Positions 259 to 25,925 of a stretch of 25,925 nucleotides of DNA are shown here, one piece after another. Each line of letters opens with the position of its first letter. Position 1 is the stretch's first letter. The position numbers and the translations under genes are program-made. The stretch is from IMG/VR virus record IMGVR_UViG_2917403263_000005. The stretch is one strand, 5' to 3'. The DNA is from a virus. Taxonomy: Duplodnaviria > Heunggongvirae > Uroviricota > Caudoviricetes. The notes under the pieces are model-generated. The model was not told the origin of the DNA and did no database searches. It saw only the letters and a list, made by a program, of their open reading frames with translations.

Positions 259-267
259 TTGCCGGAT

Positions 268-8253: not shown

Positions 8254-8307
8254 TTTGCTGTCCTGTAAATTGGGTTCTGGCGCGGTATCCCGCGCCGTTC
8301 AGATAGA

Positions 8308-8823
8308 TCAGAGGCCGAGGGCGTTGCGGTGCGCTTCCATCAGGTCCACACCGTCCACAATTTCCACCATGTTGATAAGGTCCACTTCATAGAGCACCTC
8401 ACCATTGATGGTCAGCTTCGCGTAGCTGTTGGTACTGGTCACTTTGGTGGTGTTGCTTTCGCCCGTCTTCCACTCGCCGGAATCCACTTCTTTGTGACGC
8501 CCACGCACCACAAGCTCCACGGCCTGCACTTCCCCGGTATCATCACGCTGAATAGAGCCGGTAAAGCGCAGCTGGATGCCATCCACCGTGGCTTTGCCCA
8601 TCTGCTTAAACAGCAGCAGTTCAGTACCACCAATGGAAAATTCTGTATCCAGTGCACTGTCATCCAGTCCCAGATCCACATCCACCGCCCCCGGCATACC
8701 GCCGCCGCGATACTTCTCATATTTGCGGGTGAATTTCGGCAGCGTCAGCGACTCAACGATCCCCTGCCAGTTGTTCCCGTCGTTAAACAGGTTCAGGTGT
8801 TTTAATTTGCGTGGTAAAGCCAT
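8308..8823 (-). CDS. FII: tail tube protein FII
   Basis: 171 aa, MALPRKLKHLNLFNDG...; size, sequence and position (between FI and E) match the P2 major tail tube protein. Confidence 0.9.
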   Translation of the reverse strand: MALPRKLKHLNLFNDGNNWQGIVESLTLPKFTRKYEKYRGGGMPGAVDVDLGLDDSALDTEFSIGGTELLLFKQMGKATVDGIQLRFTGSIQRDDTGEVQAVELVVRGRHKEVDSGEWKTGESNTTKVTSTNSYAKLTINGEVLYEVDLINMVEIVDGVDLMEAHRNALGL

Positions 8824-8832
8824 GTTGTCCCC

Positions 8833-10005: not shown

Positions 10006-10199
10006 AGTGGCGAACCTCCTGATTGGATTAGGCTTCGCCCTATGTTGAAGTGATTGTGCCTGACAAACAGCTAAGCGCAGTTGTACCGTTATTCATACAA
10101 AATGAGGGGAAGGCTTCAGAAGCTCACTCCACACTGGCGCTTATAGAGCTGTGTCTGATCATATGTTGATACAAGTACATAACGAATAAGCATGGTTAA

Positions 10200-10222
10200 G
10201 CTCCCAGACCAGAACTGGGAGC
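10200..10222 (-). terminator. hairpin downstream of the acyltransferase cargo gene
   Basis: 8-bp inverted repeat GCTCCCAG / CTGGGAGC with 7-nt loop, 15 nt after the acyltransferase stop. No clean U-tract follows, so weak. Confidence 0.3.
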
Positions 10223-10236
10223 ATGCCATTCACTTG

Positions 10237-11421
10237 TTATTTCTGTATTCTCACTGCCATTCTTTTTTGCACATCAAAAAATTTATTAATCACTCCATTG
10301 CGATTAATAAATGGATATTCTATACCTTTAAAAGTCATATAAGCGATAGTCACAACAATTGGCGACAACATCAGAATTAAATATGCGTATGAATTATCAC
10401 TCAAATTTCGCACATACGCCTTCCCGAGTAAAACATCTAAAGTAAAATATAGAACAATCCCGTGCATTAGATAGATACTATATGATATCTCACCAAAGAC
10501 TCTGGAGATTTTCAACTTTAACACACCAAATAGATCACATCCATTTACGATCAAAATAAATATAGCGCCGATCAATAAAATTGGCAGGTAATCAAACGAG
10601 TGAGGGAAGTAAAACAACGAAAAAACGAAACCTGAAACACACAAAAACGATGTCAATTTCAAAGATGCAACTTTTAAGATTAATTTATTACCTCGTACTG
10701 CTGAAGCTAAAAAGCCACAGGCGAATGGCAGCAAAAAGATGTAATTTAAGTTGAGGTAATTAAACGCATATAAGCTAAATGCAGGGATAACTAGCACAAA
10801 GATATTTTTGGTTCTTCTCAAAGCAAATGCAATGAGCGGTAGAGAAAAATAGAATAACCACTCATACACAAGCGTCCAATAAATACCAGCATATATATAA
10901 CCAGTATCACTAAATCCATTTATATGTGAATTACCATAAGTTGCATATATCATCCATGAAAGAATGGATTCAATTAGTTCACCTGCACTTACATTGAGTT
11001 TCCAGCCTGTTTTATATCCTATGATAAATAATGCAATTAAAAGCGAGAACATATACAGAGGATATATTCTAAAAATTCTTGATTTGTACAACGAGAACCA
11101 ATTTATTTTTTTTGAATCAATTATTTTAGAAAAAAACAAATACCCCGTTATCATAAAGAAAATCATAACGGGTAATTGCCCTGCATTCGCAAATACATGA
11201 CTTGAAGGTAAAGACCATTCATTTGTTTTTATAAAGTGATGCCATATATAAGAGTGATGCAGAAACACTAAGAAGGCCAAATACCCTCTTAATCCATCAA
11301 TATTAACGTTCCTACCTTTACCTTCAATTGGTAGCGGGCTTATTTTATCAAGAAAATACAATATGGCGATAGCTGCAAATATAGCAGCTACTATTAACAT
11401 AGGGCTATTATAAATTAACAT
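10237..11421 (-). CDS. acyltransferase-3 family integral membrane protein (putative O-antigen/LPS O-acyltransferase)
   Basis: 394-aa ORF, ATG at 11421 with AAGG 9 nt upstream. Polytopic hydrophobic protein with the N-terminal AT3 signature NIDGLRGYLAFLVFLHH (DGLRG...H). Two sampled 60-nt lines gave about 32% and 40% G+C, against about 52% in a sampled line of the flanking sheath gene. Confidence 0.8.
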   Translation of the reverse strand: MLIYNSPMLIVAAIFAAIAILYFLDKISPLPIEGKGRNVNIDGLRGYLAFLVFLHHSYIWHHFIKTNEWSLPSSHVFANAGQLPVMIFFMITGYLFFSKIIDSKKINWFSLYKSRIFRIYPLYMFSLLIALFIIGYKTGWKLNVSAGELIESILSWMIYATYGNSHINGFSDTGYIYAGIYWTLVYEWLFYFSLPLIAFALRRTKNIFVLVIPAFSLYAFNYLNLNYIFLLPFACGFLASAVRGNKLILKVASLKLTSFLCVSGFVFSLFYFPHSFDYLPILLIGAIFILIVNGCDLFGVLKLKISRVFGEISYSIYLMHGIVLYFTLDVLLGKAYVRNLSDNSYAYLILMLSPIVVTIAYMTFKGIEYPFINRNGVINKFFDVQKRMAVRIQK

Positions 11422-11640
11422 GTAATTAACCTTAGGATTTTTCAGAAATTTTCACAGCAATATTTTTATATTGTACGCTCACAAATATATCTTTCACAAT
11501 ATAAATGGTCATTACCATCATCAAAAACTGTCCCAGGATTACAGTTCTCCTGAACTCAACCAGGGCGAGAGTATCTCTATCATGTTGATTTGCAACGTGC
11601 CAGTAGCCTGTTTTATCGTGTTTCCAAAATGAGCTGGTTA

Positions 11641-11678
11641 AAAACTGGCAGGCATGAAAATCTACCTGCCAGTTTTTT
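11641..11678. terminator. bidirectional terminator-like hairpin after tail-fibre assembly gene
   Basis: AAAA-CTGGCAGG (11645-11652), 12-nt loop, CCTGCCAG (11665-11672), TTTTTT (11673-11678). Immediately 3' of the tail-fibre assembly stop (11677-11679). Confidence 0.45.
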
Positions 11679-12066
11679 ACAATGCAGGTTTATCAGGCCA
11701 TTCAATGTCCGGAGCAGTAGATGTATCGACAGCTTTCACGTCTTTGACATACTGCATCCACATAATCAACTTTGCTTTATTTTCATCACTAATGGTTCCC
11801 AGAAATAAATCAGTCCGCCAGTCTGCTGTTACGGCATTAGCATCTGCAAGCCGTGATTGTCTTTCCTGTTCAGCATTGTTAACCAGCTCTTCATATGTTT
11901 TTACGGGGGCTGGCGGAGCAATAAATTCACCATCAGCGAAAAGCCAGCCAATGCGCACTCCATCAGCAAGTGGGAACACTTGAAAACCATCCGTAGCCCA
12001 TTCACTCTCCCCATCCCATACCGCAATGTTGACAACAACACCATCTCTCACCATTGCATAATTCAT
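11677..12066 (-). CDS. G: tail fibre assembly chaperone (Tfa / gpG-like)
   Basis: C-terminal block LGTISDENKAKLIMWMQYVKDVKAVDTSTAPDIEWPDKP matches the conserved Tfa C-terminus. Start placed at ATG 12066 (GGAG 9 nt upstream, TAATG overlap with the upstream stop) rather than the ORF-track start at 12081. Confidence 0.8.
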   Translation of the reverse strand: MNYAMVRDGVVVNIAVWDGESEWATDGFQVFPLADGVRIGWLFADGEFIAPPAPVKTYEELVNNAEQERQSRLADANAVTADWRTDLFLGTISDENKAKLIMWMQYVKDVKAVDTSTAPDIEWPDKPAL

Positions 12067-12386
12067 TATGCGTACTCCCATACAATTACAATGCCTGCCA
12101 TCCCTGCACCTCCAGCACGTTGCTGTGTCGCGCCGCCGTAAACACAGGCACCGCCACCACCGCCACCTGGTCCATTAGCATTAATTCCTTCTCCGGCAAT
12201 GGCCTGTGAACCCGCGCCCTCACCCAGAACAGAACTGCCACCAGGTCCTCCCATTGCCAGCAATCCTGAATAGCGAACACCTGGCATGGTATAGCCACTG
12301 CCACTGCCAAAAATATTCGCCCCCGTGAATCCAGGTGTGTATGCACCAGCAGGCCCTACAACGGCTACATTATTACCCTCTGTCAT
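12066..12386 (-). CDS. glycine-rich tail-fibre C-terminal segment, out of frame with H (likely 3' part of a split tail-fibre gene)
   Basis: 106-aa ORF whose ATG overlaps the H stop (TAATG). Composition (GPGGGGGGACVYGG...) continues the Gly-rich character of the last 80 residues of H. The -1 frame is open across the G10 tract, so one extra G or two fewer would fuse it to H. Confidence 0.6.
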   Translation of the reverse strand: MTEGNNVAVVGPAGAYTPGFTGANIFGSGSGYTMPGVRYSGLLAMGGPGGSSVLGEGAGSQAIAGEGINANGPGGGGGGACVYGGATQQRAGGAGMAGIVIVWEYA

Positions 12387-13771
12387 TACAGCTCCACCCC
12401 CCCCCCTTTTGCGGTAACAACGTCACCAAATGCTGAACTTCCCCCTGTCGCCCCCGGCATTGCACTGGCTCCCGTTCCTCCGTACCCAACGGTAACCGTT
12501 GTTACTACCGGATGGTCTATGCGGGCTTTAACGTATTCTCCCGACATTCCCCCTCCGCCGCAGGCAGCATTGCCCCCTGTACCGACCTGGCATCCGCCGC
12601 CAGCGCCACCACCGCCAACCACTTCAACAATCGCAAACTTTATACCTGCAGTTGGCGTATATGTCCCGGAGGCTTTGAACACCTGACATTTCACCAGTCG
12701 GCCTGTTCCGTCGCCAAGCCCAAGGTATGTGAGAAGACCAGCTACATCCTTTCCACTCAAATTAGTCAGCGTATTATCCAGCGGTTGTTTTCCCGCCAGT
12801 GCATTAAGCATTGTCGTGGCAAAGTTCGGGTCATTCCCCAGCGCCGCCGCCAGTTCGTTCAGCGTATCCAGTGCCGCAGGTGCAGAACCCACTATTGCTG
12901 CAATCGCCGATTTCACAAAAGCCGTGGTGGCAATCTGTGTATTGTTGACCGACTGTGCCGCAGTCGGTGCTGTTGGCGTTCCGGTGAATGCCGGACTCGA
13001 CAGCGGCGCTTTCAGTGCTAACGCATTGTTAATGGTGGTGCTGAATTTCGGATCATTGTTAATGGCTGCGGCTATTTCTTTCAGCGTGTCCAGCGTGGCT
13101 GGCGCACCATTAATAAGAGCCGTCAGTGCCGCCTGAACAAACGCAGTGGTCGCAACCTGCGTGGTATTATTCCCCGCCGCTGGCGTTGGCGCTTTGGGTG
13201 TTCCGGTAAACGTCGGACTTTCTTTGGGTGCATACTGTGAATGCGGGTCCAGTGCGGCAAGATGTTTTGCCATCTGATCATCCGCGTACACCTTCAGCTC
13301 CAGTACCTTATCATCCACATACTTGCGAGTCGCCAGTACTACAGCAGGGTCGATTGTCAGGGTGATATTGTCCGTACTACTGGTAATCAGCACCATACGC
13401 ACGGTCTGGGTACGCCCGCTGCCTTCAGCCAGTTGCGGCTTATAGCTTTCCGGGCAGTTGCCCACGGCAATCAATGCCCCGGATTCATCAAACAGGCCCA
13501 CTTCACGTATCCACCAACCGCCCTCGTTTTCAGGGATCACCTGTTCAGCAATAATCTGGCTGCTGTTCTGCGGGTCGATATAGAGCATATTCAGCGCAGC
13601 CCGGCGTTTCTCATTTACCAGTGCAGTCTGCTTTGCGTCCGGCGTTGGCAATGTCCCGCCGCCATCGCCGACCGCCATATGGGTAATTTTTAAAGGCACA
13701 CCGAGCGCGGCGGCGCTGGCAAGTTTCGCCGCGCCAATATCCGTCAGCAGGGTATAAAATTTTGTGCTCAT
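12386..13771 (-). CDS. H: tail fibre protein H (N-terminal baseplate-binding part plus repeats; apparently truncated at a G10 tract)
   Basis: 461 aa. N-terminus MSTKFYTLLTDIGAAKLASAAALG is P2 gpH-like. Two tandem ~70-aa repeats (SPTFTGTPKAPT...NALALKA and SPAFTGTPTAPT...NALAGKQ) followed by a Gly-rich C-terminus. ATGA overlap with the I stop. Confidence 0.85.
   Translation of the reverse strand: MSTKFYTLLTDIGAAKLASAAALGVPLKITHMAVGDGGGTLPTPDAKQTALVNEKRRAALNMLYIDPQNSSQIIAEQVIPENEGGWWIREVGLFDESGALIAVGNCPESYKPQLAEGSGRTQTVRMVLITSSTDNITLTIDPAVVLATRKYVDDKVLELKVYADDQMAKHLAALDPHSQYAPKESPTFTGTPKAPTPAAGNNTTQVATTAFVQAALTALINGAPATLDTLKEIAAAINNDPKFSTTINNALALKAPLSSPAFTGTPTAPTAAQSVNNTQIATTAFVKSAIAAIVGSAPAALDTLNELAAALGNDPNFATTMLNALAGKQPLDNTLTNLSGKDVAGLLTYLGLGDGTGRLVKCQVFKASGTYTPTAGIKFAIVEVVGGGGAGGGCQVGTGGNAACGGGGMSGEYVKARIDHPVVTTVTVGYGGTGASAMPGATGGSSAFGDVVTAKGGGVEL
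12397..12406 (-). repeat. homopolymeric G10 tract (C10 on plus strand) at the 3' end of tail-fibre gene H
   Basis: Counted directly: plus strand ccaCCCCCCCCCCtttt. On the coding strand it reads GCA AAA GGG GGG GGG GTG GAG CTG TAA. Confidence 0.9.
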
Positions 13772-14373
13772 GGATTCACTCTCATTGTGTCAATAACATG
13801 GATCGCCCCGCCTTCATGCGCGGTGCCGCCAGAAATAATTGTTTCGTTGATATACGGATAGATCGTGATTTCTTCGCCAAGATAGCTGGCGGCCCCCACC
13901 CAATGCGGACCGCTGGTCTGCAGATTGATGGACATGCCGATCATGTGACGGCTACATGGTTTGGCATCGCTTATCAGTCGCTCAAGTTCCAGATAGGTAT
14001 CTTCAGTGATGCCCTGATCCTGCACGCCGATATCCAGGCGAAACGTGCCTGGTGTTTCTCCGGTCTGCCACCACTCAATAATGCGGATCAGAAAGCCGAA
14101 CGGCTCCACCACCCGCCGCACGGCACTGGTGGTTCCTTTGTGCTGATGAATATAAAAAGCATCCTTCACCACCTGGCGTTTGACGCTTTCTGTCCAGCTC
14201 TCGTCCCAGCGATCCACAGAGAACGCCCAGGCGAGATAAGGCAGGAAACTGACCGGACAGGTAGCCGGATCCCACAAGTCACGTAGCGGCACCTGCAAAT
14301 CAGAAATCCCGCTGCAGGTTTGTGCCAGTCGGCGCTCCAGTGGTGTTGAACCCGGTGGCAGCAGACTATTCAT
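13768..14373 (-). CDS. I: baseplate protein I
   Basis: 201 aa; motifs LPYLAWAFSVDRWDE and PGTFRLDIGV match P2 gpI. Confidence 0.85.
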   Translation of the reverse strand: MNSLLPPGSTPLERRLAQTCSGISDLQVPLRDLWDPATCPVSFLPYLAWAFSVDRWDESWTESVKRQVVKDAFYIHQHKGTTSAVRRVVEPFGFLIRIIEWWQTGETPGTFRLDIGVQDQGITEDTYLELERLISDAKPCSRHMIGMSINLQTSGPHWVGAASYLGEEITIYPYINETIISGGTAHEGGAIHVIDTMRVNP

Positions 14374-15274
14374 CCGTTCCTCCGTTGGTTACGCTCCACT
14401 GCGTACATGATGCCGCCTGCGTTTTGTTCAGAACCACATCCGCCAGCGGAGAAGCCAGTTCCACACGCTGCACACCCTCAACATGCAGCGCGGCAAAAAT
14501 GGCACTACGGCGAATATCCCGACCGAGCCGCGTCTGACTGGCAATGTACCTCTGCAGACTGGCTTTTGCCGCTGCCATTACCGGCTCTGCTTCCGGTCCC
14601 GGATAGAGAAAAATGGTGGCATCCACCCGGTACGGGATGATTTCTGCGCTGCGAACCGTCAGACGGTCAGCCACCGGGCGGACGTTCTCACTGTTCAGGG
14701 CTTTTTCCACCACGTCCAGCAGGTCTTTTTCTGCTGTTCCGTCGCCTTCGCGGCTAAGGACAGTCAGCACCACCTCTGCAGGTGCCGGACTGGTTGCACT
14801 GGCATCCGCCACCCGACCGTCGGCGCTTCGTGCATGAAATTCATAAGCGGCAGTTGGCCCCGCAACTGAAAGTCCTTCAAAGGCTGCAGGCACACGCAGG
14901 CGTAACGCTTCATCGCTTTCCATCACAGCCGCAACGGGCGGTACAGCGTCATCATCAGCAGGCGTCACCGTCAGGCGTTTCACGTTGTAGTTGGCAGCGA
15001 GCTGGTCCAGATCGCCGCCCATCGCATAAGCCACCATCACCGCCTGCGCGGCTTCGTTAATGCGCTGGCGCAGAAGCAGCTCACGATAAGCGTTCTCCTG
15101 CAACAATTTGGTGACGGGTTCAGATTCCAGTTCCAGCGTGCGGATCACTGCTTCCTGCTCATCTTTCGGATGAAGCGCCACAAATTCTGCCTTGCGTTCG
15201 GCAAGCAGCGTCTCAAAGTCCGACACATCCACAATCTGCGGCGCAGGCAACTGCGAAAGGTCAATCACTGCCAT
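14366..15274 (-). CDS. J: baseplate assembly protein J
   Basis: Matches P2 gpJ (MAVIDLSQLPAPQ...LHVEGVQRVELASPLADVVLN). Start placed at ATG 15274 (AGGAG 8 nt upstream) rather than the ORF-track start at 15313. Confidence 0.85.
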   Translation of the reverse strand: MAVIDLSQLPAPQIVDVSDFETLLAERKAEFVALHPKDEQEAVIRTLELESEPVTKLLQENAYRELLLRQRINEAAQAVMVAYAMGGDLDQLAANYNVKRLTVTPADDDAVPPVAAVMESDEALRLRVPAAFEGLSVAGPTAAYEFHARSADGRVADASATSPAPAEVVLTVLSREGDGTAEKDLLDVVEKALNSENVRPVADRLTVRSAEIIPYRVDATIFLYPGPEAEPVMAAAKASLQRYIASQTRLGRDIRRSAIFAALHVEGVQRVELASPLADVVLNKTQAASCTQWSVTNGGTDE

Positions 15275-15620
15275 TCTCTGCTCCTGTTGATACGGAAAGG
15301 GAAACAGGCACACCGTTATTACGCCGCCCGGTCAGCTCCACCACCATTGAACCGTCAAAATCGCTGTTGATGGTGATGGAATCCAGCGTCAGCCGTGGCT
15401 CCCAGCGACTCAGCGCCACATACACTGCCGACATGACCTGCAGGCGTAACGCCGAATTTTGTGGCTGATCTATCAGTGCCGACAGCAGGGAACCATATTC
15501 CCGGCGGGCAATGCGGCTACCCTGCGGCGTCAGCAGAATGTCCCGCACTGACTGGCGCAGATGGTCAATATCAGTAATGGTCTTGCCCGTTGCGCTGTTC
15601 ATGCCGTAATACATCGTCAT
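15261..15620 (-). CDS. W: baseplate wedge protein W (gp25-like)
   Basis: 119 aa; MTMYYGMNSATGKTITDIDHLRQSVRDILLTPQGSRIARREYGS matches P2 gpW; ATGA overlap with the V stop. Confidence 0.85.
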   Translation of the reverse strand: MTMYYGMNSATGKTITDIDHLRQSVRDILLTPQGSRIARREYGSLLSALIDQPQNSALRLQVMSAVYVALSRWEPRLTLDSITINSDFDGSMVVELTGRRNNGVPVSLSVSTGAENGSD

Positions 15621-16195
15621 ACCGGGCCTCCCGATGTGTCGCCGCCAGACTTCACTTTATTGTGCGCGTGGTCATCCACCACGATCTCGTTGGAACTCAT
15701 CGGGCCGCCGCCCTGAGTCACACCACCGTTGATCACCACCTCACTGTTAATACGGGTGGTGTCGGCTTCCACGATAAACTCCCCGGTTTTGAAGGTGACG
15801 TTATCCACCGCCTCGATCACCATGGATTTAATACCCCGAACGTACCAGCGCCCGATTTCGGGGTCGTACTCAAACCAGCCGCCGTCCGGGTATTCCGTCA
15901 CGTTGCCGTCCTCAGACCTGGACGGCGGCGGAAACTGGTTTGAATAGACGGCAGGCAGGGCAAAGGCGGTTTCCAGATTGCCGCCCAGGCTGAACAGCAC
16001 AACCTGCTCCCCCACAGACGGTTTCCACCAGGTGCGCGAGTTGCCCGCGCGCAGCGTCAGCCAGTTAATCCAGTTGGTTTCAAGCTCACCCGTTTTCACC
16101 CGGCACAGCCAGTTGTCCCGGTCCACTGCCGTTACAGTTCCGGTGCGGATTAGGTTGGTGATAAGGCGCATGATTTCTGTGAGTTGTGCGTTCAT
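15617..16195 (-). CDS. V: baseplate spike/assembly protein V
   Basis: 192 aa; MNAQLTEIMRLITNLIRTGTVTAVD...RSEDGNVTEYPDGG is P2 gpV-like; ATG at 16195. Confidence 0.85.
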   Translation of the reverse strand: MNAQLTEIMRLITNLIRTGTVTAVDRDNWLCRVKTGELETNWINWLTLRAGNSRTWWKPSVGEQVVLFSLGGNLETAFALPAVYSNQFPPPSRSEDGNVTEYPDGGWFEYDPEIGRWYVRGIKSMVIEAVDNVTFKTGEFIVEADTTRINSEVVINGGVTQGGGPMSSNEIVVDDHAHNKVKSGGDTSGGPV

Positions 16196-16251
16196 AGCTA
16201 TAGATTGCCATGAATGATGTATCTAAGAACAAGGTGAGCTTAGTCTGGTCC

Positions 16252-16279
16252 ATGACACAATTAAGAATTACTATATAAA
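16252..16279 (+). promoter_or_regulatory. candidate sigma70 promoter for the V-S cargo gene
   Basis: ATGACA (16252-16257), 16-bp spacer, TATAAA (16274-16279), about 30 nt upstream of ATG 16310. Hexamers read by eye in an AT-rich region, so this is weak. Confidence 0.3.
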
Positions 16280-16309
16280 AATTGTTAACTACTTGGTTGA
16301 GAAACAAAC

Positions 16310-17137
16310 ATGAAAAATAAGAACCAGTATCAGGCTTTACTTAGAGGGAAGGTCGAATCGGCGATTGCTCAAGCCAAAAGTGCTGCAGGATTTTCCCACC
16401 AGGGTGTTAAGGGAGCTGTTCTAGAAATATTATTAAGTCAACTATTTCGACCTCTTTTGCCCGCAGATGTTGGCATTGGCACAGGGCAAATCATTGAACA
16501 GTATTCAGGAAAGTTATCACCTCAAATAGATATTATTATTTACAATAAATCAATACTCCCTCCGATATTAATCGATGGTGCCACAGGGTTATTCCCAATA
16601 GAATCAGTTCTATATACCATTGAGGTAAAAACCACATTAAGCTCATCGGAACTCAGCTCTGCACACTCAAGTGCAAAAGAACTTAATGAGAAATTCGGTT
16701 ACTTACCTGGAATAAAAGATGAATCAGGCAAACTAATCCAACACAAAATAGAGAAACTTCGCTCGGTAATATTCGCTCTAAGTAGCGACTTATCACCAAA
16801 TGGAATTACTGAAGCCGAAAGGTATAAAAAAATATACAAAGAAGACTTTCGTTACGTTACAGCAATTTGCGTTGCAGGTCGTGAGTATAGTTATGAAGAT
16901 CGAGATTGCTGGGTAACAATGCGTAATACTCAAGCGTATGATGAAATCCTTGCATTTATTGGAGGCATAACCAATACATATAAAGGTGTTTCAGAAAGTC
17001 GTGGGACACCATTGCTAGGATATTACATTGTTCCAGAGAATGTCGAACTGAGCCTTACAGCTTGTACCACACTCCCGGAATTGCAAGTTAAGTGCACGCA
17101 ATGCGCTGAAACTAAAAAAAATAATCCCCACCTTTGA
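16310..17137 (+). CDS. uncharacterised PD-(D/E)xK-like nuclease-fold protein with C-terminal CxxC (cargo gene, frame as called)
   Basis: 275-aa ORF on the strand opposite all flanking late genes. Restriction-endonuclease-like motif pattern E39 ... D74 (PQIDIIIY) ... E105-x-K107 (YTIEVKTT). C262-x-x-C265 near the C-terminus. AT-rich: two sampled lines gave about 27% and 38% G+C. I cannot assign it to a named family. Confidence 0.6.
   Translation: MKNKNQYQALLRGKVESAIAQAKSAAGFSHQGVKGAVLEILLSQLFRPLLPADVGIGTGQIIEQYSGKLSPQIDIIIYNKSILPPILIDGATGLFPIESVLYTIEVKTTLSSSELSSAHSSAKELNEKFGYLPGIKDESGKLIQHKIEKLRSVIFALSSDLSPNGITEAERYKKIYKEDFRYVTAICVAGREYSYEDRDCWVTMRNTQAYDEILAFIGGITNTYKGVSESRGTPLLGYYIVPENVELSLTACTTLPELQVKCTQCAETKKNNPHL
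17114..17121 (+). repeat. A8 homopolymer at the point where the cargo ORF changes frame
   Basis: Counted directly: actAAAAAAAAtaat (17114-17121). In frame it reads ACT AAA AAA AAT AAT CCC CAC CTT TGA. Confidence 0.9.
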
Positions 17138-17297
17138 CAACGATGATGAACTAATACTAAAAAACTACACTATTACTGATAACAAGCCTTGTAAATGTGG
17201 TGGGGAATTTAAATCAGAAAAAGGTAATTTCACCATTAAAAATGGTCGACTGAGAGAAATAGAGTACAACGAGCCAGCTCGAATTTACAAAGAGTAA
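17136..17297 (+). other. out-of-frame coding continuation of the cargo gene (+1 frame, no start codon) carrying the second half of a zinc ribbon
   Basis: Open frame ...DNDDELILKNYTITDNKPCKCGGEFKSEKGNFTIKNGRLREIEYNEPARIYKE ending at TAA 17295-17297, 15 nt before the S stop. It has no ATG/GTG/TTG start of its own. Its CKC pairs with the upstream CTQC to give CxxC-x33-CxC. Confidence 0.55.
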
Positions 17298-17311
17298 ATA
17301 TAACGAAGGAA

Positions 17312-17758
17312 TTAAGGCCTTAGCCATTTATAAACGACAGATGCAATTTCATCTTTGTCAGATGAAGTAAAACCTAGTAACAGCCGCTCCGCATAACGTA
17401 CCTCTGGCCCCCGGCGGCTTACACGATCGAGCAGACCGTAATGGTGAACACGGGCAATACGCTGCACCTTGCCTTCAAACTGTACGCTGGCAGAGTCGGC
17501 GCTGGCGGCAGTTTTCAGGTATTTTGTGGTGCGCAGCTTTGCAAACATCTGACGTTTGATGCGCCCCTTTTTACTGCGTGCTGTTACCCGTCGCGGTTCA
17601 TAGCTGCTGCCGTCAGGGTTGCGCTGCATCCTGATATTCTGCTGCTGTGTCCGGCGCAGTTCCTGCGCCAGCTGACGCATCATGCGAATTCTTGCGGCTG
17701 GCTCCAGATTCGCCAGCAAGGCACTCAGCCAGTCGTCCACTTTCTGCAGTTCAGCCAC
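17312..17758 (-). CDS. S: tail completion protein S
   Basis: 148 aa, GTG start; (M)AELQKVDDWLSALLANLEPAARIRMMR resembles the P2 gpS N-terminus; overlaps the R stop. Confidence 0.85.
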   Translation of the reverse strand: MAELQKVDDWLSALLANLEPAARIRMMRQLAQELRRTQQQNIRMQRNPDGSSYEPRRVTARSKKGRIKRQMFAKLRTTKYLKTAASADSASVQFEGKVQRIARVHHYGLLDRVSRRGPEVRYAERLLLGFTSSDKDEIASVVYKWLRP

Positions 17759-18182
17759 GTTTCACCGTCCACATTTCTTCAGGTTCATCGGGTTCCGTTA
17801 TCGCTTCAACGCTCGACACACTTCCGTCAGTGCTGACCAGCACACGCTCCGTCAGTTGCAGGTTCAGGCTGATATCACAGACATCATTGCGCAGAATATC
17901 CACCTCAAAGGTGAATAACTTTTCCCGTAACGTCGGGTTATTGATGGCATCGGGCTGGTTATCCCGCAGCCACAGCAAAACCGGAGCCATCAGCAGATTC
18001 TGGTCGCCGCTGAAATCCTCGATCACCACGTTCAGGGTATAACGGTACTCCCATGACATGGAGCTGGCCCCCGTGGCAACCAGCGAACCGTTATCCACAA
18101 ACAGATGCAGTTTGTCCGGGTTATTACAGACATAAGGCACCGCTTTATTGAGGGCGTGGCGCAGGGATTGTGGTTTGTTCAC
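17751..18182 (-). CDS. R: tail completion protein R
   Basis: Alignment with P2 gpR begins at VNKPQSLRHALNKAV. Start placed at GTG 18182 (AGGAG 7 nt upstream) rather than the TTG at 18203 used by the ORF track. Confidence 0.85.
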   Translation of the reverse strand: MNKPQSLRHALNKAVPYVCNNPDKLHLFVDNGSLVATGASSMSWEYRYTLNVVIEDFSGDQNLLMAPVLLWLRDNQPDAINNPTLREKLFTFEVDILRNDVCDISLNLQLTERVLVSTDGSVSSVEAITEPDEPEEMWTVKRG

Positions 18183-18435
18183 TGTTTCGCTCCTGACACG
18201 CAATAATCATGTCCACTTTGTCTGCACAGACCGCCCAGGCAGCCTCCGTTTCATCCAGCAATGCGTTCAGATCACCGTTAGTGCGCGGCGCTGCCTGATC
18301 CAGCCGACACGGCGTCACTCGCGGACAACCACTGACGGTAAGCTGCACCTCCGGTGAGTGCCGGACGTTCCCGCAGCCGGATAATGTCAGCAGGCAAAGG
18401 AGTATCAGCCCAGCGGCGTAAATCCTCGTTCTCAC
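18145..18435 (-). CDS. lysC: LysC / Rz1-like outer-membrane lipoprotein (o-spanin), overlapping lysB
   Basis: 96 aa with signal peptide and lipobox LTLSGC, Pro-rich; embedded out of frame in the 3' part of lysB and running into R, as in P2. GTG start with GAGGA 8-9 nt upstream. Confidence 0.6.
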   Translation of the reverse strand: MRTRIYAAGLILLCLLTLSGCGNVRHSPEVQLTVSGCPRVTPCRLDQAAPRTNGDLNALLDETEAAWAVCADKVDMIIACQERNSEQTTIPAPRPQ

Positions 18436-18706
18436 TTTTCAGTTCCTCGATCCGGCGTTGTCGTTGTCTCAGCAATGCGCTGGTCTGTTCAGCTTCGGCA
18501 TAGAGCCGCGCCTGCTCCCGGTTATTGGTTTCAGTCAGAATGGACAGGCTGATAAGCTGGCTGTTGCTCTTTGCCAGTGCCTGGCTTTTGCTCTGCAGCT
18601 CGTCTGCCTGCGTGCTGATGGTCTGGCTGGCATCAGCCAGCCGCCACGTCTGCCAGCCCAGCGCCGCCAGTAATAACGCCAGCATAACCAGCAGCAACCG
18701 GTTCAT
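18278..18706 (-). CDS. lysB: LysB / Rz-like inner-membrane spanin
   Basis: 142 aa; N-terminal TM anchor MNRLLLVMLALLLAALGW followed by a long coiled-coil-like region rich in Q/E/R/L. Confidence 0.7.
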   Translation of the reverse strand: MNRLLLVMLALLLAALGWQTWRLADASQTISTQADELQSKSQALAKSNSQLISLSILTETNNREQARLYAEAEQTSALLRQRQRRIEELKSENEDLRRWADTPLPADIIRLRERPALTGGAAYRQWLSASDAVSAGSGSAAH

Positions 18707-19080
18707 GCTGCTACCTGTTGCGCCATCTGGTTACGGGTGATCCGGAAGGCAATAACGGTCAGCAGATAAAAGACCAGGGTAATGGCCCACCCCGTCCAGG
18801 CGAGACTTACGACAATCAGCAATCGCATCACCCAGCTGATAAATACGTTTTCTTTTCGGGTAATGGTCTTCAGCAAAGATGCCCTCAACTCCTGCCAGAG
18901 CGGGCCGTTCTTAATTAACGCAGCCAGTGATACCGGAATTACCGCCCATGTCAGCAGACAGGCTACCCAGACACCGGACGCTGCCAGTACCGGAAAAATC
19001 CCCTGCGGATACACCATTGCTGCGATCAACAGCGCCATCCATAACATCAGAAACAGCCCGCTGATTACTTTCTTTTTCAT
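18703..19080 (-). CDS. lysA: LysA-like membrane protein (lysis timing)
   Basis: Four predicted TM segments. Start placed at ATG 19080 (MKKKVISGLF...), directly after the endolysin stop, rather than the ORF-track start at 19152. Confidence 0.6.
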   Translation of the reverse strand: MKKKVISGLFLMLWMALLIAAMVYPQGIFPVLAASGVWVACLLTWAVIPVSLAALIKNGPLWQELRASLLKTITRKENVFISWVMRLLIVVSLAWTGWAITLVFYLLTVIAFRITRNQMAQQVAA

Positions 19081-19081
19081 T

Positions 19082-19594
19082 TCAGTTTGCTCCCTGTAAG
19101 CACCAGGCCATCTCCCGCGCACGGCGGTTATCCAGCCCCTGATTAAACACACCTTTTACATACACCCAGCGCGGCAACTGTCGGCACGCATCCGCCCAGC
19201 GCCGCTGATTGAGCAATTTCACCAGCGTGGAACTACAGGCATTGCCCGTCCCCACGTTGAAGGCAAACGACACCGTAGCGTCATACACCTTCTGCGGTGG
19301 CTGTTGCTTCACACACCTTTCCAGCGCCCGCTCCACACGCAGCACGTTGGAGATCAGCCCTTCTGCTGCCTGTCGCTCCGTAATGGTTTTGCCGGGAATG
19401 ACGCCCGACGTATTACCAATGCCGTCGGTCCAGACACCCGCGCTGCACTGATACGGCTGCAGACGACAACCTTCGTAATCGGCAATCAGTTTCAGCCCTT
19501 CCACGGAGGTGTGAAGCTGCTGAAAACCCGGCAGCGTGGCAGCAATAGCCAGCACGGCCCCGACAAGGCAGCGTTTAACGATTGATGGATTCAT
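19082..19594 (-). CDS. SAR-type endolysin (T4-lysozyme/GH24-like, P1 Lyz / phage 21 R-like)
   Basis: 170 aa. N-terminal weakly hydrophobic Gly/Ala-rich segment KRCLVGAVLAIAATLPGF, then catalytic block EGCRLQPYQCSAGVWTDGIGNT characteristic of SAR lysozymes. Confidence 0.85.
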   Translation of the reverse strand: MNPSIVKRCLVGAVLAIAATLPGFQQLHTSVEGLKLIADYEGCRLQPYQCSAGVWTDGIGNTSGVIPGKTITERQAAEGLISNVLRVERALERCVKQQPPQKVYDATVSFAFNVGTGNACSSTLVKLLNQRRWADACRQLPRWVYVKGVFNQGLDNRRAREMAWCLQGAN

Positions 19595-19790
19595 AGTCCT
19601 CCCGCGAGATCTGCCCGTCGCGCAGAAGCTGGTAGGCTTTGTGTTTGTAGTACCAGTTGATAGCCAGCATCAGCACACCAATCATCAGGCCGCCCAGCGT
19701 TGAGGCATCCTTGATGGACAAATCGCCCAGCCAGGCCAGCACAACGGCGATGCAATACGTGATAAAGGCGCTGATTCGCTCAAGCGTCAT
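19575..19790 (-). CDS. small two-TMD holin (pinholin-like)
   Basis: 71 aa, two hydrophobic segments (ISAFITYCIAVVLAWLG; LGGLMIGVLMLAINWYY) and a charged C-terminus; immediately upstream of and overlapping the SAR endolysin. Confidence 0.65.
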   Translation of the reverse strand: MTLERISAFITYCIAVVLAWLGDLSIKDASTLGGLMIGVLMLAINWYYKHKAYQLLRDGQISREDYESINR

Positions 19791-19793
19791 AAT

Positions 19794-19997
19794 TCAGTCC
19801 CATAGCTGGACGGTCTGCACGGTGGTGGTGGTCGGAATGTCCGGCAGCTCCACCTGCAGCCCGTGAGGTAAAAAGGGGCCGTATTCGGCAAGCCCCGGAT
19901 TTGCCTTCAGTACCTGCTCCGTGACACCCTGCGTGCGCCCGTAATGACGCCAGCAAAGCGCGTCCACCGTGTCATACTGATGCGCACGCACTTTCAT
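19794..19997 (-). CDS. X: tail protein X
   Basis: 67 aa, MKVRAHQYDTVDALCWRHYGRTQGVTEQVLKANPGLA matches P2 gpX. Confidence 0.8.
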   Translation of the reverse strand: MKVRAHQYDTVDALCWRHYGRTQGVTEQVLKANPGLAEYGPFLPHGLQVELPDIPTTTTVQTVQLWD

Positions 19998-20461
19998 CAG
20001 ATAAGCTCCACTGTGCAGTGCGGCGCATCCTGTACCCGGCTGATGGCCCAGCGGGCGTCACGCCACAAATCACCGCTGGCTTCTGCCAGTTCTTCGCCCC
20101 GCTTCACACCGGATGCCGTGGCGTCATAGTCCTGGTAACGTTCGTTGAGCATGGCGCGTGCCCAGCAGTAAACCGCGTTGAAATAGTGCTGAATGCGCTC
20201 ACTTTTGCCGTCCAGCTGTTCCGCCGGAACCTCTGCCAGCGAGGCATACCCCAGCATCTGCTGGCGTCTGCGAAACTCATACAGCTCTGCGTTGACCTCC
20301 GAAATTGCCGACAGCGCAACCTGCTTTAAACGCGGCTGCGTCACCGTGCCGTCAGTGCGCATCACGCTGCGAAACTCCGACAGGTCCACATCAGGCCAGA
20401 ACGGCGTATTTCTGATGATTTCCGCCTGTTCCGGTGCCTGTTCTGGCGCAACAAACTTCAT
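19997..20461 (-). CDS. L: capsid completion protein L
   Basis: Matches P2 gpL (FWPDVDLSEFRSVMRTDGTVTQ...TVELI). Start placed at ATG 20461 (GGAG 10 nt upstream) rather than the GTG at 20524 used by the ORF track. Confidence 0.8.
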   Translation of the reverse strand: MKFVAPEQAPEQAEIIRNTPFWPDVDLSEFRSVMRTDGTVTQPRLKQVALSAISEVNAELYEFRRRQQMLGYASLAEVPAEQLDGKSERIQHYFNAVYCWARAMLNERYQDYDATASGVKRGEELAEASGDLWRDARWAISRVQDAPHCTVELI

Positions 20462-20556
20462 GCTGCTTTCTCCTGAAATAAAGGGCGGTGGACGGGGTTT
20501 TGATGTGGCAGTGCCTTTCGCCACCCCGTGCCGCCCGTGCGCGGGGGCACGTTCTG

Positions 20557-21208
20557 TCAGCGGCTGTCATTGCGCAGTCTGCGCTCCAGCTGCTGTTTGT
20601 CTTTTTTCACGCCACAGCGGGGATCGAGCTGTAACGCATGGTTGAGATGATTAAGGGCGGAAGCCGGATTGCTTTCACTCAGGACAGCGCCAATCGCTTT
20701 ATGCAGACGTGCCCGTGACTGGTCCGGCATATCCAGACCGTCTGTCAGCTCCAGCGTCTGCAGCAACAGATCAGCATCAAAGCCGGTGGCGGCAAGCATT
20801 GCGCTCTGCGCTGCGTCTGCCATTTCCTCTGCCAGCACGGTCTGCACGTTGCGGTTACCCAACGGCATCACCCAGCCATGACGCAGGGCGTGACGCCCGA
20901 TCTCCAGCCGCCCCGGCATAATCTCCGGCATCAATGCGCCACAGCATCACGTACATCAGCACGTCATCCTGTTGCGCGCCTCCGGCAGCCAGGACACCCT
21001 CTGCCCAGGCGGCGTATTTCGGCAGCAGTTCCACCTTGATTTCCGCTTTTTTGACCGTGGACTGAACACCCTTGAGACGGCGGCGGTCTTCCGCCAGTTG
21101 CAGCAGCATCAGGTCATAGCCCGACGCGTGGCGAACGCTGCCGCCCTCACGGGCGGCCTGTTCAGCCTGAACGCGCAGGCGATGCTGCCGTGCGGGACTC
21201 AGGCTCAT
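20557..21208 (-). pseudogene. M: terminase endonuclease/small subunit M, interrupted by a 1-nt frameshift
   Basis: N-terminal part (frame A, 21208..20855: ...DDVLMYVMLWRIDAGDYAGA) and C-terminal part (frame B, 20934..20557: LEIGRHALRHGWVMP...GVKKDKQQLERRL) each match consecutive halves of P2 gpM. The join needs removal of one G in GCCGGGGCG-G-CTGGAG (plus strand 20902-20917). Confidence 0.75.
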
Positions 21209-21211
21209 GGG

Positions 21212-22270
21212 TTACGCTCCGGTTTCTGCTGCGGCGGCGCTGAAATCGCCAATCTGGATGTTTTCCACCAGTGCAGCGCAGCGGTAGTCCTCAACCACAT
21301 AGGCTTCGTTAACAGATTCAAAGTTTTCAATCCGGTCACGTTTCGGGTTGTCGATAACTGAACGGCGGCGGGTGTCTTCCTGCCAGTAGATGGACAGGTT
21401 ATCCAGACGGGTGATCAGCAGCGCATTCGGCGGGAAGAACGGCGCACGCACGGCCTGCAGACCGCCCATGCGTTTCTGACTGATAATCATATCGGCTGCC
21501 AGTTTTTCACTGTTTTCCTGCTCTTTGTTGACCAGCGGGAAATACTTGTCAGACAGCAGTTCACGACCGCAAATCACTACCAGATCGTCATCGTCCTGGT
21601 AGACCACGTCGATAAGCTCATTGACCGCATCCATCACCACAGCGTCCAGGTTGGCATATTCGCCACCTTTCCCGACTTTCACCGCACCCGGTGTGGTTTC
21701 GCCGCCCGTGGTGGTGCTGCCCATGACGTGATCCGGTGCATCCTCACGGATTTTCTGCAGCCAGCCTTTATTCACATCCTGCAGCAGCGGGTTTTCGCTA
21801 CGGTTGGAAGTTTTCGCACGCTTCACGCCGTTAAAGCCGATCATGATGCGGTCCAGTGCCTGACGTTTCACGATGGCGTCACGGATGCGCACCTGGAAAT
21901 CCTGAAACTTCGCCCACAGATCCAGCTTCGCGTAGGTCAGCACCGTGTCAAAGTTGGTCTGCTCGCATTTATATTCCACATCGACCATCAGCGTCGGATC
22001 GACAGGCTCACGCTCTTTCGCGGTGGTATCAGTGGTTCCGGCAATGGTGCTGCCAACACCCAATCCAAGCAGCTGACCGGACTGCTCAGTCACTGGCGTG
22101 ACGTTAATCAGTGTCAGGAAAGCGGCGGACTGCTGGATCTGGTCTTCCAGCGTCTGCTGTACAGACGGCTCCACGGTGAACTTGCTGGACAGTTCTTCAA
22201 CTGCCACACCGTTCAGACGCGCCAGCTGCTGCAGGTAAGCGTTAAAAGCAAAGCGGGTATTCTTCTTCAT
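21212..22270 (-). CDS. N: major capsid protein N
   Basis: 352 aa; MKKNTRFAFNAYL...GKGGEYANLDAVVMDA...LSIYWQED matches P2 gpN throughout. Confidence 0.9.
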   Translation of the reverse strand: MKKNTRFAFNAYLQQLARLNGVAVEELSSKFTVEPSVQQTLEDQIQQSAAFLTLINVTPVTEQSGQLLGLGVGSTIAGTTDTTAKEREPVDPTLMVDVEYKCEQTNFDTVLTYAKLDLWAKFQDFQVRIRDAIVKRQALDRIMIGFNGVKRAKTSNRSENPLLQDVNKGWLQKIREDAPDHVMGSTTTGGETTPGAVKVGKGGEYANLDAVVMDAVNELIDVVYQDDDDLVVICGRELLSDKYFPLVNKEQENSEKLAADMIISQKRMGGLQAVRAPFFPPNALLITRLDNLSIYWQEDTRRRSVIDNPKRDRIENFESVNEAYVVEDYRCAALVENIQIGDFSAAAAETGA

Positions 22271-22286
22271 CAGGTTTTGTGCTCCA

Positions 22287-23120
22287 TCAGCAATTGGTCA
22301 GAGTGTCAGCGGGGGCGTTACCGCCTGTTGCACGCTGGCGGTAGTCCTGGCGGCTGTCTTCATGGCTCAGCTTGTCCACCAGTTCGTTAAAGGCGGTCAG
22401 CTGTGCCTGCAGGGCTGTCTCCAGCTCAGACAGGCGTTCTTCCTGTTCAGACAGGGATTTTTCGGTGCGCGCACTCAGGTTTTGCTGCTCAGTGGCGACC
22501 AGCTCCACGGCCTTATGCACATCAGAGAACCGGGCATCATCGGACTGCTCTTTTTTGGTAAACAGCGCCGTGACACGGGCAAACAGGGATGGTTTTTCGT
22601 CCTGGACTTCTTCCAGTTCGATCACCGTTTCCTCTGCAGCGGTAAAAAGATTGGCGGGATTCTGCTTGCGGTTTGCCAGCGGGTTATGGGCTGCACTGGC
22701 ACTGAATGTCAGCATTTCCGTACCCAGACTGGCTGGATCATCAGTGGCGGCCAGGCCAACCAGGTAGGCTTTGCCCGTATCAGCGAACTTCGGGCTGACT
22801 TCCATAGATGTGAATAATTTCTGGCCTTTTTTCACCAGTTCCACCAGGGACTCCGTTGGCTCAACGTCGGCATACAGTGCCATCTTGCCCGCCAGCGGAC
22901 CTTCCGTGATTTCTTCAGCAAACAGCGCCGTCACCTTGCCGTAGCGGTTAAAGGTGCTGTCCGGCAGATAAGACTTGATGTGCTCAAGGTTAATCAGCGC
23001 GGTATACACCGCCGGGTTGTAGCTGGCTGCCATCTGTTCCAGCCATTCACGCTGGATTTCGCGTCCGTCGGTAGTGGCACCTTCCACCCCGATGCGAAAA
23101 CGCTTTGCTTTCACTGTCAT
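22287..23120 (-). CDS. O: capsid scaffolding protein O
   Basis: 277 aa; MTVKAKRFRIGVEGATTDGREI... with a coiled-coil C-terminal half; matches P2 gpO. Confidence 0.9.
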   Translation of the reverse strand: MTVKAKRFRIGVEGATTDGREIQREWLEQMAASYNPAVYTALINLEHIKSYLPDSTFNRYGKVTALFAEEITEGPLAGKMALYADVEPTESLVELVKKGQKLFTSMEVSPKFADTGKAYLVGLAATDDPASLGTEMLTFSASAAHNPLANRKQNPANLFTAAEETVIELEEVQDEKPSLFARVTALFTKKEQSDDARFSDVHKAVELVATEQQNLSARTEKSLSEQEERLSELETALQAQLTAFNELVDKLSHEDSRQDYRQRATGGNAPADTLTNC

Positions 23121-23198
23121 GAGCCGTGCTCCGTTAGAAAAAACTTACTGGAGCCTTATGGTTGCGGTGATGGGGGCAGTGAAACAATGCGCGGTCTT

Positions 23199-23216
23199 TG
23201 TACCGACAACCACACA
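23199..23216. promoter_or_regulatory. candidate Ogr-responsive late-promoter element (TGT-N12-ACA) in the O/P divergent region
   Basis: Exact TGTaccgacaaccacACA read in the 142-bp intergenic region between divergent O (start 23120) and P (start 23263). Centre is about 55 bp upstream of a plausible O transcription start near 23152. Confidence 0.4.
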
Positions 23217-23262
23217 AACCGCAGGCGGGGAAAGCCTTCATTCAAGGCTGTAGGTTTGTGCC

Positions 23263-25029
23263 ATGAACACCACACTGACACCCGCAGATCTCGATCCCCG
23301 TCGGCAGGCCATGCTGCTGTACTTTCAGGGATACCGCGTAGCCCGCATTGCTGAAATGCTGGGCGAGAAAGTTGCAACCGTTCACAGCTGGAAAAAACGC
23401 GACAAGTGGGGTGACTATGGGCCGCTGGATCAGATGCAGCTCACCACCGCCGCACGCTACTGCCAGCTCATTATGAAGGAGCACAAAGAAGGGAAAGATT
23501 TCAAAGAGATTGACCTGCTGGCGCGCCAGTCGGAGCGCCACGCGCGGATCGGCAAGTTTAACAATGGCGGCAACGAAGCCGACTTAAACCCTAACGTCGC
23601 CAACCGCAACAAAGGGCCGCGCCGTCAGCCGGAAAAGAATGTTTTCACCGATGAACAGATTGAGAAGCTGGAAGAAATCTTCCATTCCTCCATGTTCAAC
23701 TACCAGCGCCACTGGTGGGAAGCAGGAAAAACCAACCGCATCCGTAATCTGCTGAAGTCACGCCAGATCGGCGCGACCTTTTACTTTGCCCGTGAAGCCC
23801 TGATTGACGCCCTGCTTACCGGACGTAACCAGATTTTCCTTTCTGCCAGTAAGGCACAGGCGCACGTCTTTAAGCAGTACATCATCGATTTTGCCAAAGA
23901 AGTCGAAGTGGAGCTGAAAGGCGATCCGATGGTGCTTCCTAACGGTGCCACGCTTTACTTCCTCGGCACCAATGCCCGCACGGCCCAGAGTTATCACGGC
24001 AACCTGTATCTGGATGAATATTTCTGGATACCGAAATTTCAGGAGCTGCGCAAAGTGGCTTCCGGTATGGCTATTCACAAAAAATGGCGACAAACCTATT
24101 TTTCCACGCCATCCAGCCTGACCCACAGTGCTTATCCGTTCTGGTCCGGTGCGCTGTTCAATCGTGGGCGCAACAAAGCCGATAAGGTGGACATCGACCT
24201 GTCCCACAACAATCTGGCCCCCGGCCTGCTGTGCGCAGACGGGCAATACCGCCAGATAGTCACCGTGGAAGATGCGGTGCGCGGCGGCTGTAACCTGTTC
24301 GATCTCGACCAGTTGCGCATGGAGTACAGCCCGGACGAATACCAGAACCTGCTGATGTGTGAGTTCGTGGACGATCTCGCGTCCGTGTTCCCGCTCAGCG
24401 AGCTGCAGGCGTGCATGGTGGACAGTTGGGAAGTCTGGACCGACTTTCATGCACTGGCGCTGCGCCCGTTTGGCTGGCGCGAGGTTTGGATCGGTTATGA
24501 CCCGGCAAAAGGTACGCAGAACGGCGACAGCGCCGGATGCGTGGTGGTGGCACCGCCAGCCGTGCCGGGCGGTAAGTTCCGCATTCTTGAGCGTCACCAG
24601 TGGCGCGGGATGGACTTCCGCGCCCAGGCTGACGCCATCAAAAAACTGACCGAACAGTATAACGTGACCTATATCGGCATCGACTCGACCGGCGTCGGTC
24701 ACGGGGTTTACGAGAACGTGAAAGCATTTTTTCCTGCCGTCAGGGAGTTTGTCTACAACCCCAACGTTAAAAACGCCCTGGTACTCAAGGCCTACGACAT
24801 TATCAGCCACCGCCGTCTGGAGTTTGACGCCGGGCACACCGACATTGCGCAGTCATTTATGGCAATCCGTCGCGCCACCACTGCCAGTGGCAACCGCCCG
24901 ACCTATGAAGCCAGCCGCAGCGAAGAAGCCAGCCATGCCGATCTGGCCTGGGCAACAATGCACGCACTGTTTAACGAACCGCTGCAGGGCGAGTCCGCCA
25001 ATACCAGCAATATTGTGGAGATTTTTTGA
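23263..25029 (+). CDS. P: terminase large (ATPase) subunit P
   Basis: 588 aa; MNTTLTPADLDPRRQAMLLYFQGYRVARIAEMLGEK... matches P2 gpP; divergent from O. Confidence 0.9.
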   Translation: MNTTLTPADLDPRRQAMLLYFQGYRVARIAEMLGEKVATVHSWKKRDKWGDYGPLDQMQLTTAARYCQLIMKEHKEGKDFKEIDLLARQSERHARIGKFNNGGNEADLNPNVANRNKGPRRQPEKNVFTDEQIEKLEEIFHSSMFNYQRHWWEAGKTNRIRNLLKSRQIGATFYFAREALIDALLTGRNQIFLSASKAQAHVFKQYIIDFAKEVEVELKGDPMVLPNGATLYFLGTNARTAQSYHGNLYLDEYFWIPKFQELRKVASGMAIHKKWRQTYFSTPSSLTHSAYPFWSGALFNRGRNKADKVDIDLSHNNLAPGLLCADGQYRQIVTVEDAVRGGCNLFDLDQLRMEYSPDEYQNLLMCEFVDDLASVFPLSELQACMVDSWEVWTDFHALALRPFGWREVWIGYDPAKGTQNGDSAGCVVVAPPAVPGGKFRILERHQWRGMDFRAQADAIKKLTEQYNVTYIGIDSTGVGHGVYENVKAFFPAVREFVYNPNVKNALVLKAYDIISHRRLEFDAGHTDIAQSFMAIRRATTASGNRPTYEASRSEEASHADLAWATMHALFNEPLQGESANTSNIVEIF

Positions 25030-25925
25030 TGGGAAAGAGTAAGAAAAAACGCGCTGCGGCGACGAATCAGATCCAGCATAAAAACCAAACTTCAGCCGAA
25101 GCATTCAGCTTCGGTGATCCCGTTCCTGTTCTGGACCGCCGCGAACTGCTGGACTATGTGGAATGCGTACAGATGGACCGTTGGTATGAGCCACCAGTGA
25201 GTTTCGACGGCCTGGCGCGAACCTTCCGCGCCGCCGTACACCACAGCTCACCGATTGCAGTAAAGTGCAACATTCTGACCAGCACCTATATCCCTCACCC
25301 GTTGCTCAGCCAGCAGGCTTTTTCACGTTTTGTGCAGGACTATCTGGTATTTGGTAACGCCTACCTGGAGAAACGCACGAACCGCTTCGGTGAAGTTATC
25401 GCCCTTGAACCTGCCCTGGCAAAATACACTCGACGCGGATTAGACCTGGATACCTACTGGTTTGTGCAATACGGTATGGCAACCCAGCCGTATCAGTTCA
25501 CGAAAGGCAGCATCTTTCATCTGATGGAACCGGATATTAATCAGGAGATCTACGGCCTGCCTGGCTATCTTTCTGCTATTCCATCCGCTCTGCTCAACGA
25601 GTCCGCCACGCTGTTCCGCCGGAAGTATTACATTAACGGTAGTCATGCAGGCTTCATCATGTACATGACCGATGCCGCGCAGAACCAGGAGGATGTGAAC
25701 AACCTCCGCAATGCGATGAAAAGCGCCAAAGGCCCTGGCAACTTCCGCAATCTGTTTATGTACTCGCCTAATGGTAAAAAAGACGGACTTCAGATTATCC
25801 CGTTGTCAGAAGTCGCAGCGAAGGATGAGTTTCTGAATATCAAAAACGTGAGCCGTGATGACATGATGGCTGCGCATCGTGTTCCGCCACAGATGATGGG
25901 GATTATGCCGAATGAAGTGTTGGGG
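25029..25925 (+). CDS. Q: portal protein Q (5' partial; runs off the window end)
   Basis: ATG at 25029 overlaps the P stop (TGATG). Hand translation MGKSKKKRAAATNQIQHKNQTSAEAFSFGDPVPVLDRRELLDYVECVQMDRWYEPP... matches P2 gpQ; no stop before the window end. Confidence 0.9.
   Translation, partial: MGKSKKKRAAATNQIQHKNQTSAEAFSFGDPVPVLDRRELLDYVECVQMDRWYEPPVSFDGLARTFRAAVHHSSPIAVKCNILTSTYIPHPLLSQQAFSRFVQDYLVFGNAYLEKRTNRFGEVIALEPALAKYTRRGLDLDTYWFVQYGMATQPYQFTKGSIFHLMEPDINQEIYGLPGYLSAIPSALLNESATLFRRKYYINGSHAGFIMYMTDAAQNQEDVNNLRNAMKSAKGPGNFRNLFMYSPNGKKDGLQIIPLSEVAAKDEFLNIKNVSRDDMMAAHRVPPQMMGIMPNEVLG

Follow-up and report, generated by a model that had tools for sequence, protein, structure and literature searches.

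Packaging of phage P2 DNA requires both gpM and gpP (PMC7552001), and gpM is one of the seven hallmark proteins of P2-like viruses (PMC13100340). P2 gpM (AAD03272.1) belongs to Pfam family PF05944 (Phage_term_smal), is 247 amino acids long and is encoded in the late operon O-N-M-L-X-Y-K. In E. coli P2/186-like prophages (e.g. WP_000059205.1) and in Klebsiella phage 4LV2017 (GpM, ARB15687.1; Elveevirus), M is uninterrupted and 651 nucleotides long, and the M products of such relatives are annotated as 'terminase endonuclease subunit' or 'phage terminase small subunit'. The stretch of DNA analyzed here, referred to as the window (25,925 nucleotides), carries a P2/186-like prophage (Peduoviridae) inserted next to ybjL. 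Its M gene occupies the same place as in the P2 operon, between the capsid gene N and the head-completion gene L and opposite the divergent P-Q operon (tblastn and P2 annotation). Over 1 kb with the same neighboring genes, the nucleotide identity of the M region is 99.3–99.6% to the E. coli prophages and 97.7% to phage 4LV2017. As deposited, however, the window M gene contains one additional G that these relatives lack. The presence of the resulting frameshift in the deposited sequence is confirmed, an error of the sequencing platform is its most likely and, in our judgment, probable cause, and the biological interpretation given to it earlier is not supported. The features considered are listed below.

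12066..13771, minus strand: tail-fibre gene H, out of frame (461 + 106 amino acids), with the break at a G10 run at 12397-12406
19997..20461, minus strand: gene L, head completion protein, intact, directly downstream of M (tblastn, 154/154 amino acids, 100% identity)
20557..21208, minus strand: gene M, small terminase subunit of the P2 gpM family, 652 nucleotides as deposited, one base over
20855..21208, minus strand: ORF1, 117 amino acids, native gpM residues 1-100 followed by 17 out-of-frame residues (AGDRASRPASWLGDAVG)
20557..20934, minus strand: ORF2, 125 amino acids with a TTG start, 9 out-of-frame residues followed by native gpM residues 101-216 (native part 20560..20907)
20908..20909, either strand: the duplicated base, CC on the plus strand and GG on the coding strand, a single C/G in all relatives
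21212..22270, minus strand: gene N, major capsid protein, intact, directly upstream of M (tblastn, 352/352 amino acids, 98.9% identity)
23263..25029, plus strand: gene P, large terminase (ATPase) subunit, intact in the window (tblastn)

The window begins with the host genes grxA-ybjM-ybjL, which are followed by the phage genes ogr, D, U, T, E/E', FII and FI, an acyltransferase cargo gene, then G, H, I, J, W, V, a DUF6602 cargo gene, S and R, and finally lysC/B/A, K, Y, X, L, M, N, O and the divergent genes P and Q. The portal gene Q runs off the end of the contig, and the early region of the prophage sits on another contig. When about 26 late genes plus ogr were compared with the prophage of E. 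coli 2018-05-5CC using tblastn, all late genes were full length except M and H. The insertion is located directly downstream of ybjL, which encodes an aspartate:alanine antiporter, with ogr at the junction (window positions 1-3100); the ybjL site is also used by E. coli prophages. The host flank is 96.7% identical to Escherichia sp. E1V33, 95.2% identical to E. whittamii and about 91% (90–95%) identical to E. coli, values that are consistent with a host belonging to Escherichia cryptic clade II.

The two halves of gpM are encoded by two overlapping minus-strand ORFs in different frames, in agreement with the earlier note. The interval between the ATG and the stop codon is 652 nucleotides in the window compared with 651 nucleotides, encoding 216 amino acids, in the relatives. 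Members of the P2 gpM family possess one uninterrupted frame of about 216–247 codons, and the deposited M does not. ORF1 matches positions 1–66 of the PF05944 profile (E value 9.6e-24) and ORF2 matches positions 67–130 (E value 1.2e-9), so that the halves of a single domain are split between the two frames, which is not a chance pattern. Removal of base 20908 or 20909 yields a 216-residue ORF that reads ...DAGDYAGALEIGRHALRHGWVMP... across the junction, hence the single-base repair proposed earlier holds, as does the alignment of the repaired stretch with P2, whose gpM reads DTGDIAGALEIARYALKYGLTMP at the aligned position. The repaired protein scores 138.1 bits against PF05944 (gathering cut-off 29.4) and covers profile positions 1–130 of 130. 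No NCBIfam model matches gpM. BLASTP alignment of the repaired protein with P2 gpM shows 49% identity over 212 amino acids with an E value of 5e-59. The two proteins differ in length, 216 residues in the window and 247 in P2, and the basic C-terminal tail of P2 gpM is absent from the window protein. Unlike P2 gpM, the window M is interrupted after residue 100 as deposited.

The position of the additional base was defined by an alignment of the window M with those of E. coli A30, E. coli CUPS SST 5/1 and Klebsiella phage 4LV2017, which has a mean column identity of 99% and a single gap, the extra G of the window, at column 300. The junction reads GCCGGGGCGCTGGAG in the relatives and GCCGGGGCGGCTGGAG in the window. 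The G is located directly after the Ala100 codon (GCG), one base away from a run of four Gs, and constitutes a G to GG change; in the alignment with the SRR8835201 assembly described below, the gap is placed at window position 20909. From Leu101 onward ORF2 is native. A fifth G within the G4 run was ruled out, as deletion from the run produces AGRLEI whereas the relatives read AGALEI, and the alignment gap falls at the next G.

The extra G was then sought in other genomes. A megablast search with the 71-nucleotide junction against 5,426 E. coli genomes returned 934 matching complete-genome records, none of which contains the extra G (0/934); the best match covers 70 of 71 positions with one gap. 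There is no exact 30-mer match to the extra-G junction in the GTDB species representatives, IMG/VR or the JGI metagenomes. The junction is in frame at 25 fetched loci, and the extra G was seen only in the window together with its own NCBI contig and in one Logan contig, that of SRR6148330. Among the sequences searched, the extra G is apparently private to one source or read set. A frameshift inherited by descent in independent genomes was rejected, since none carrying it was found among the 5,426 E. coli genomes, the GTDB representatives, IMG/VR and the JGI metagenomes.

The window corresponds to contig PDID01000004.1 (GCA_004745145.1) of Escherichia cryptic clade II strain E3659, with 100% identity over the 12,828 nucleotides fetched. 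The E3659 genome (PDID00000000) was obtained from Ion Torrent single-end reads of 35–400 nucleotides at approximately 40x coverage and assembled with MIRA and SPAdes (PMC6639607). On the PDID01000004.1 record no protein product is listed for the interval separating L from N, which would follow if the annotation pipeline had classed M as a pseudogene.

Two Logan assemblies are nearly identical to the window. The contig of SRR8835201 aligns with window positions 237..21423 with 0 substitutions and 2 single-base indels over 21,185 nucleotides. It lacks the extra G, so that M is intact and encodes 216 amino acids, and it has a run of seven Ts where the window has eight at position 17121. The contig of SRR6148330 (13,322 nucleotides) aligns with window positions 12458..25781, also with 0 substitutions and 2 single-base indels. 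It contains the same extra G, and M is called as two ORFs of 117 and 103 amino acids. Its two differences from the window are a GG to G change at window position 23580 (contig position 2201; TCGGCT to TCGCT), which splits P into 107 and 445 amino acids, and T7 in place of T8. The P site at 23580 resembles the M site in its context, CG[G]CT. Because the P protein of the window is a very common allele (8,823 index blocks) and T8 also occurs in an independent sample at 97.6% identity, both differences look like errors of the SRR6148330 re-assembly. M is 216 amino acids long in every relative shown among the O and P protein matches. Relatives also encode a CI repressor of the 186 type and DinI/Tum-like genes. 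The O and P proteins themselves were discarded as markers of sister strains, as they are too widespread (2,811 index blocks for O and 8,823 for P).

The PDID01000004.1 and SRR6148330 contigs both break inside Q at 25.8–25.9 kb, the latter approximately 145 nucleotides earlier, and the SRR8835201 contig extends about 5 kb further past the break. The shared break in Q suggests that SRR6148330 is the E3659 read set. The right end of the window (25781-25925) lies within Q and stops exactly at the end of PDID01000004.1; E3659 may carry a second P2-like element with the same sequence as this right end.

Given the choice left by the earlier note between a defective prophage and indel-prone sequence data, the latter is favored, on the grounds of the Ion Torrent draft, the private G, the intact M of the sister assembly and the indel-only differences. 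We judge it probable that the extra G is an Ion Torrent base-calling error. A single G would have been over-called one flow after the G4 run, or the site would be a run-specific 'high-frequency indel', and the miscalled base would then have been carried into the E3659 draft assembly; the true gene would be an ordinary intact 216-residue small terminase. This account supposes that the reads miscall the site and that SRR6148330 consists of E3659 reads. Across the three assemblies the differences comprise G to GG in M, GG to G in P and T8 to T7, with zero substitutions. As a rough expectation of our own, about one consensus indel per 26 kb would not be surprising on the Ion Torrent platform.

The published behavior of the platform supports this account. 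In Ion Torrent data, short homopolymers are called too long and long ones too short (Bragg et al. 2013, PMC3623719). High-frequency indels (HFIs) occur at about 1 per 1–2 kb of reference and are mostly single-base; 29% of them are in homopolymers, 82–87% are run-specific, and in assemblies they lead to 'unresolvable differences or frame-shifts' (PMC3623719). Indels were likewise the predominant errors in the study of Song et al., in which about 15% of reads carried site-specific insertions (PMC5556038). The window insertion resembles the HFI errors of Bragg et al. in that it is a single base that repeats its neighbor in a GC-rich context, is found in one read set, is missing from the sister run and occurs alongside further disagreements that are all indels. 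It differs in that HFI insertions are more often A/T than G/C (PMC3623719), whereas the inserted base here is a G. The all-indel pattern of disagreement matches the published Ion Torrent errors and therefore favors an artefact. Moreover, with no substitution in 21 kb relative to the sister assembly, there has been hardly any time in which a real insertion could have arisen outside a homopolymer, and beyond the shift M does not differ from the intact SRR8835201 copy.

Several observations count against an artefact. The consensus of the depositors, obtained with MIRA and SPAdes, and the Logan k-mer assembly both call the extra G; as two assembly routes agree, the extra G dominates the reads and is not the product of one assembler. 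Nor does a G to GG change represent an error in a long homopolymer. Inactivating mutations in prophage genes are common, and selection on the virion genes may already be relaxed, H being out of frame. Were SRR6148330 another isolate, the shared rare insertion would favor a real inherited mutation.

The alternative, that the extra G is a real and very recent single-base duplication in E3659 that truncates gpM after residue 100, is possible but doubtful. It draws on the occurrence of the base in both the NCBI assembly and the SRR6148330 Logan re-assembly, on the split of PF05944 at profile position 66/67, on the requirement for gpM and gpP in P2 packaging and the hallmark status of gpM (PMC7552001, PMC13100340), and on the out-of-frame H of the lineage, which would fit a relaxation of selection on the genes for the virion. 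Set against it are the platform together with the indel-only disagreements between assemblies, the scant time that the sister assembly allows for a non-homopolymer insertion, and the lack of any other damage private to the E3659 assembly. The two accounts predict different junctions, GCGGCTGG if the insertion is real and GCGCTGG if it is an artefact.

Because packaging requires both gpM and gpP and the only domain of gpM is bisected, a real truncation at residue 100 would presumably leave the prophage unable to cut or package cos DNA but still able to excise, replicate and lyse its host. A real insertion would be an ordinary private loss of function affecting a packaging gene that the phage cannot do without, and prophages are well known to become cryptic in this way. 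Satellites dependent on the terminase of this prophage would then be predicted to be immobile from E3659. Defective prophages with point lesions offer a parallel, in that the late region of the window is otherwise complete and the lesion falls in an essential packaging gene. However, multiple lesions, deletions and accumulated substitutions are usual in established defective prophages, whereas the window shows one private base on an indel-prone platform. M has one extra base and no substitutions, and H is out of frame at a G10 run that other samples share. The gene-by-gene tblastn comparison with the E. coli relative, in which the other late genes are full length except H, gives little sign of a general decay in the late region.

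The further proposal that the cargo genes are 'effectively domesticated' finds no support whether the extra G is real or not. Beyond the shift M matches the intact copy base for base, the assembly carries no further private lesion, and a lysogen expresses its cargo genes whether or not the phage can package its DNA. Such a mutation, even if real, would have arisen extremely recently and would show no sign of selection. A single-base frameshift in an Ion Torrent draft should not be equated with the inactivation or domestication of a prophage without read-level or orthogonal confirmation, and the same caution applies to other 'pseudogenes' in the 16 clade II assemblies of the project.

It is very improbable that the frameshift is real but tolerated, either through +1 slippage on the upstream GGG-G or because the two halves act as a working split subunit. 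If ribosomes slipped by +1 on GCC GGG G, the original frame would be regained one codon ahead of the extra base, giving ...DYAGRLEIGRH... with Ala100 replaced by Arg. In addition, ORF2 has an in-frame ATG at its start that is preceded, at a distance of 3 nucleotides, by a GGAG motif. GGG-G could permit only weak slippage, and the spacing between GGAG and the ATG is too short for efficient initiation. Inspection of the site, GAT TAT GCC GGG GCG GCT GGA GAT, revealed no 0-frame stop, no hungry or known pause codon and no recognized +1 stimulator, and the break falls at the middle of the sole Pfam domain. The arrangement is not conserved either, with 0/934 E. coli records, 0/25 fetched loci and no match in the GTDB representatives, IMG/VR or the JGI metagenomes. 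A programmed frameshift or a split functional subunit was therefore rejected for want of conservation and of a recognizable signal. The least probable combination, for which we see hardly any chance, is a real extra G with weak +1 slippage on GGG-G that still supplies a little full-length small terminase (Ala100 to Arg); the supply of terminase, and with it virion output, would be throttled but not abolished and, together with the G10 tract of H, particle production would be gated by two slippage-prone sites.

The tail-fibre gene H, which the earlier note did not mention, is better evidence on the competence of the prophage than M. In-frame relatives of H read GGGGGGTTGGG and were found in 2 E. 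coli genomes, 3 Logan samples and 2 IMG/VR contigs. The corresponding run is G10 in the window, in SRR8835201 and in SRR26188678, and G9 in SRR26188687; neither length is in frame, as H is in frame only with G8 or G11. SRR26188678 represents a different strain, with 9 substitutions relative to the window in 2.8 kb. The Gly_rich_2 domain is interrupted by the break, at position 95 of its 226-position profile. The end of the 461-residue ORF and the start codon of the 106-residue ORF overlap in the sequence TAATG. Because the out-of-frame variant of H involves a substitution and recurs in another, independent project, it is a genuine feature of the lineage, either a lesion or a slippage-prone switch. 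H could thus be a phase-variable or a decaying tail fibre.

Two cargo genes were noted in the late region. The first encodes a 394-residue Acyl_transf_3 protein (PF01757) at 10237-11421 on the minus strand, between the tail sheath gene FI and the tail-fibre assembly gene G. An identical protein is encoded on 11 contigs, and the gene may specify a lysogenic-conversion acyltransferase. The second, a DUF6602 gene at 16310-17137 on the plus strand, is carried by an extra 1.1 kb between V and S. Its product is 275 amino acids long with the A8/T8 run of the window and 328 amino acids long with the T7 run of both Logan assemblies, the run being located at approximately 17114-17121. Comparison of the 328-residue version with PADLOC models gave matches to a PD-(D/E)xK nuclease (E value 6.6e-32) and to NucC-like effectors (E value 7e-14).
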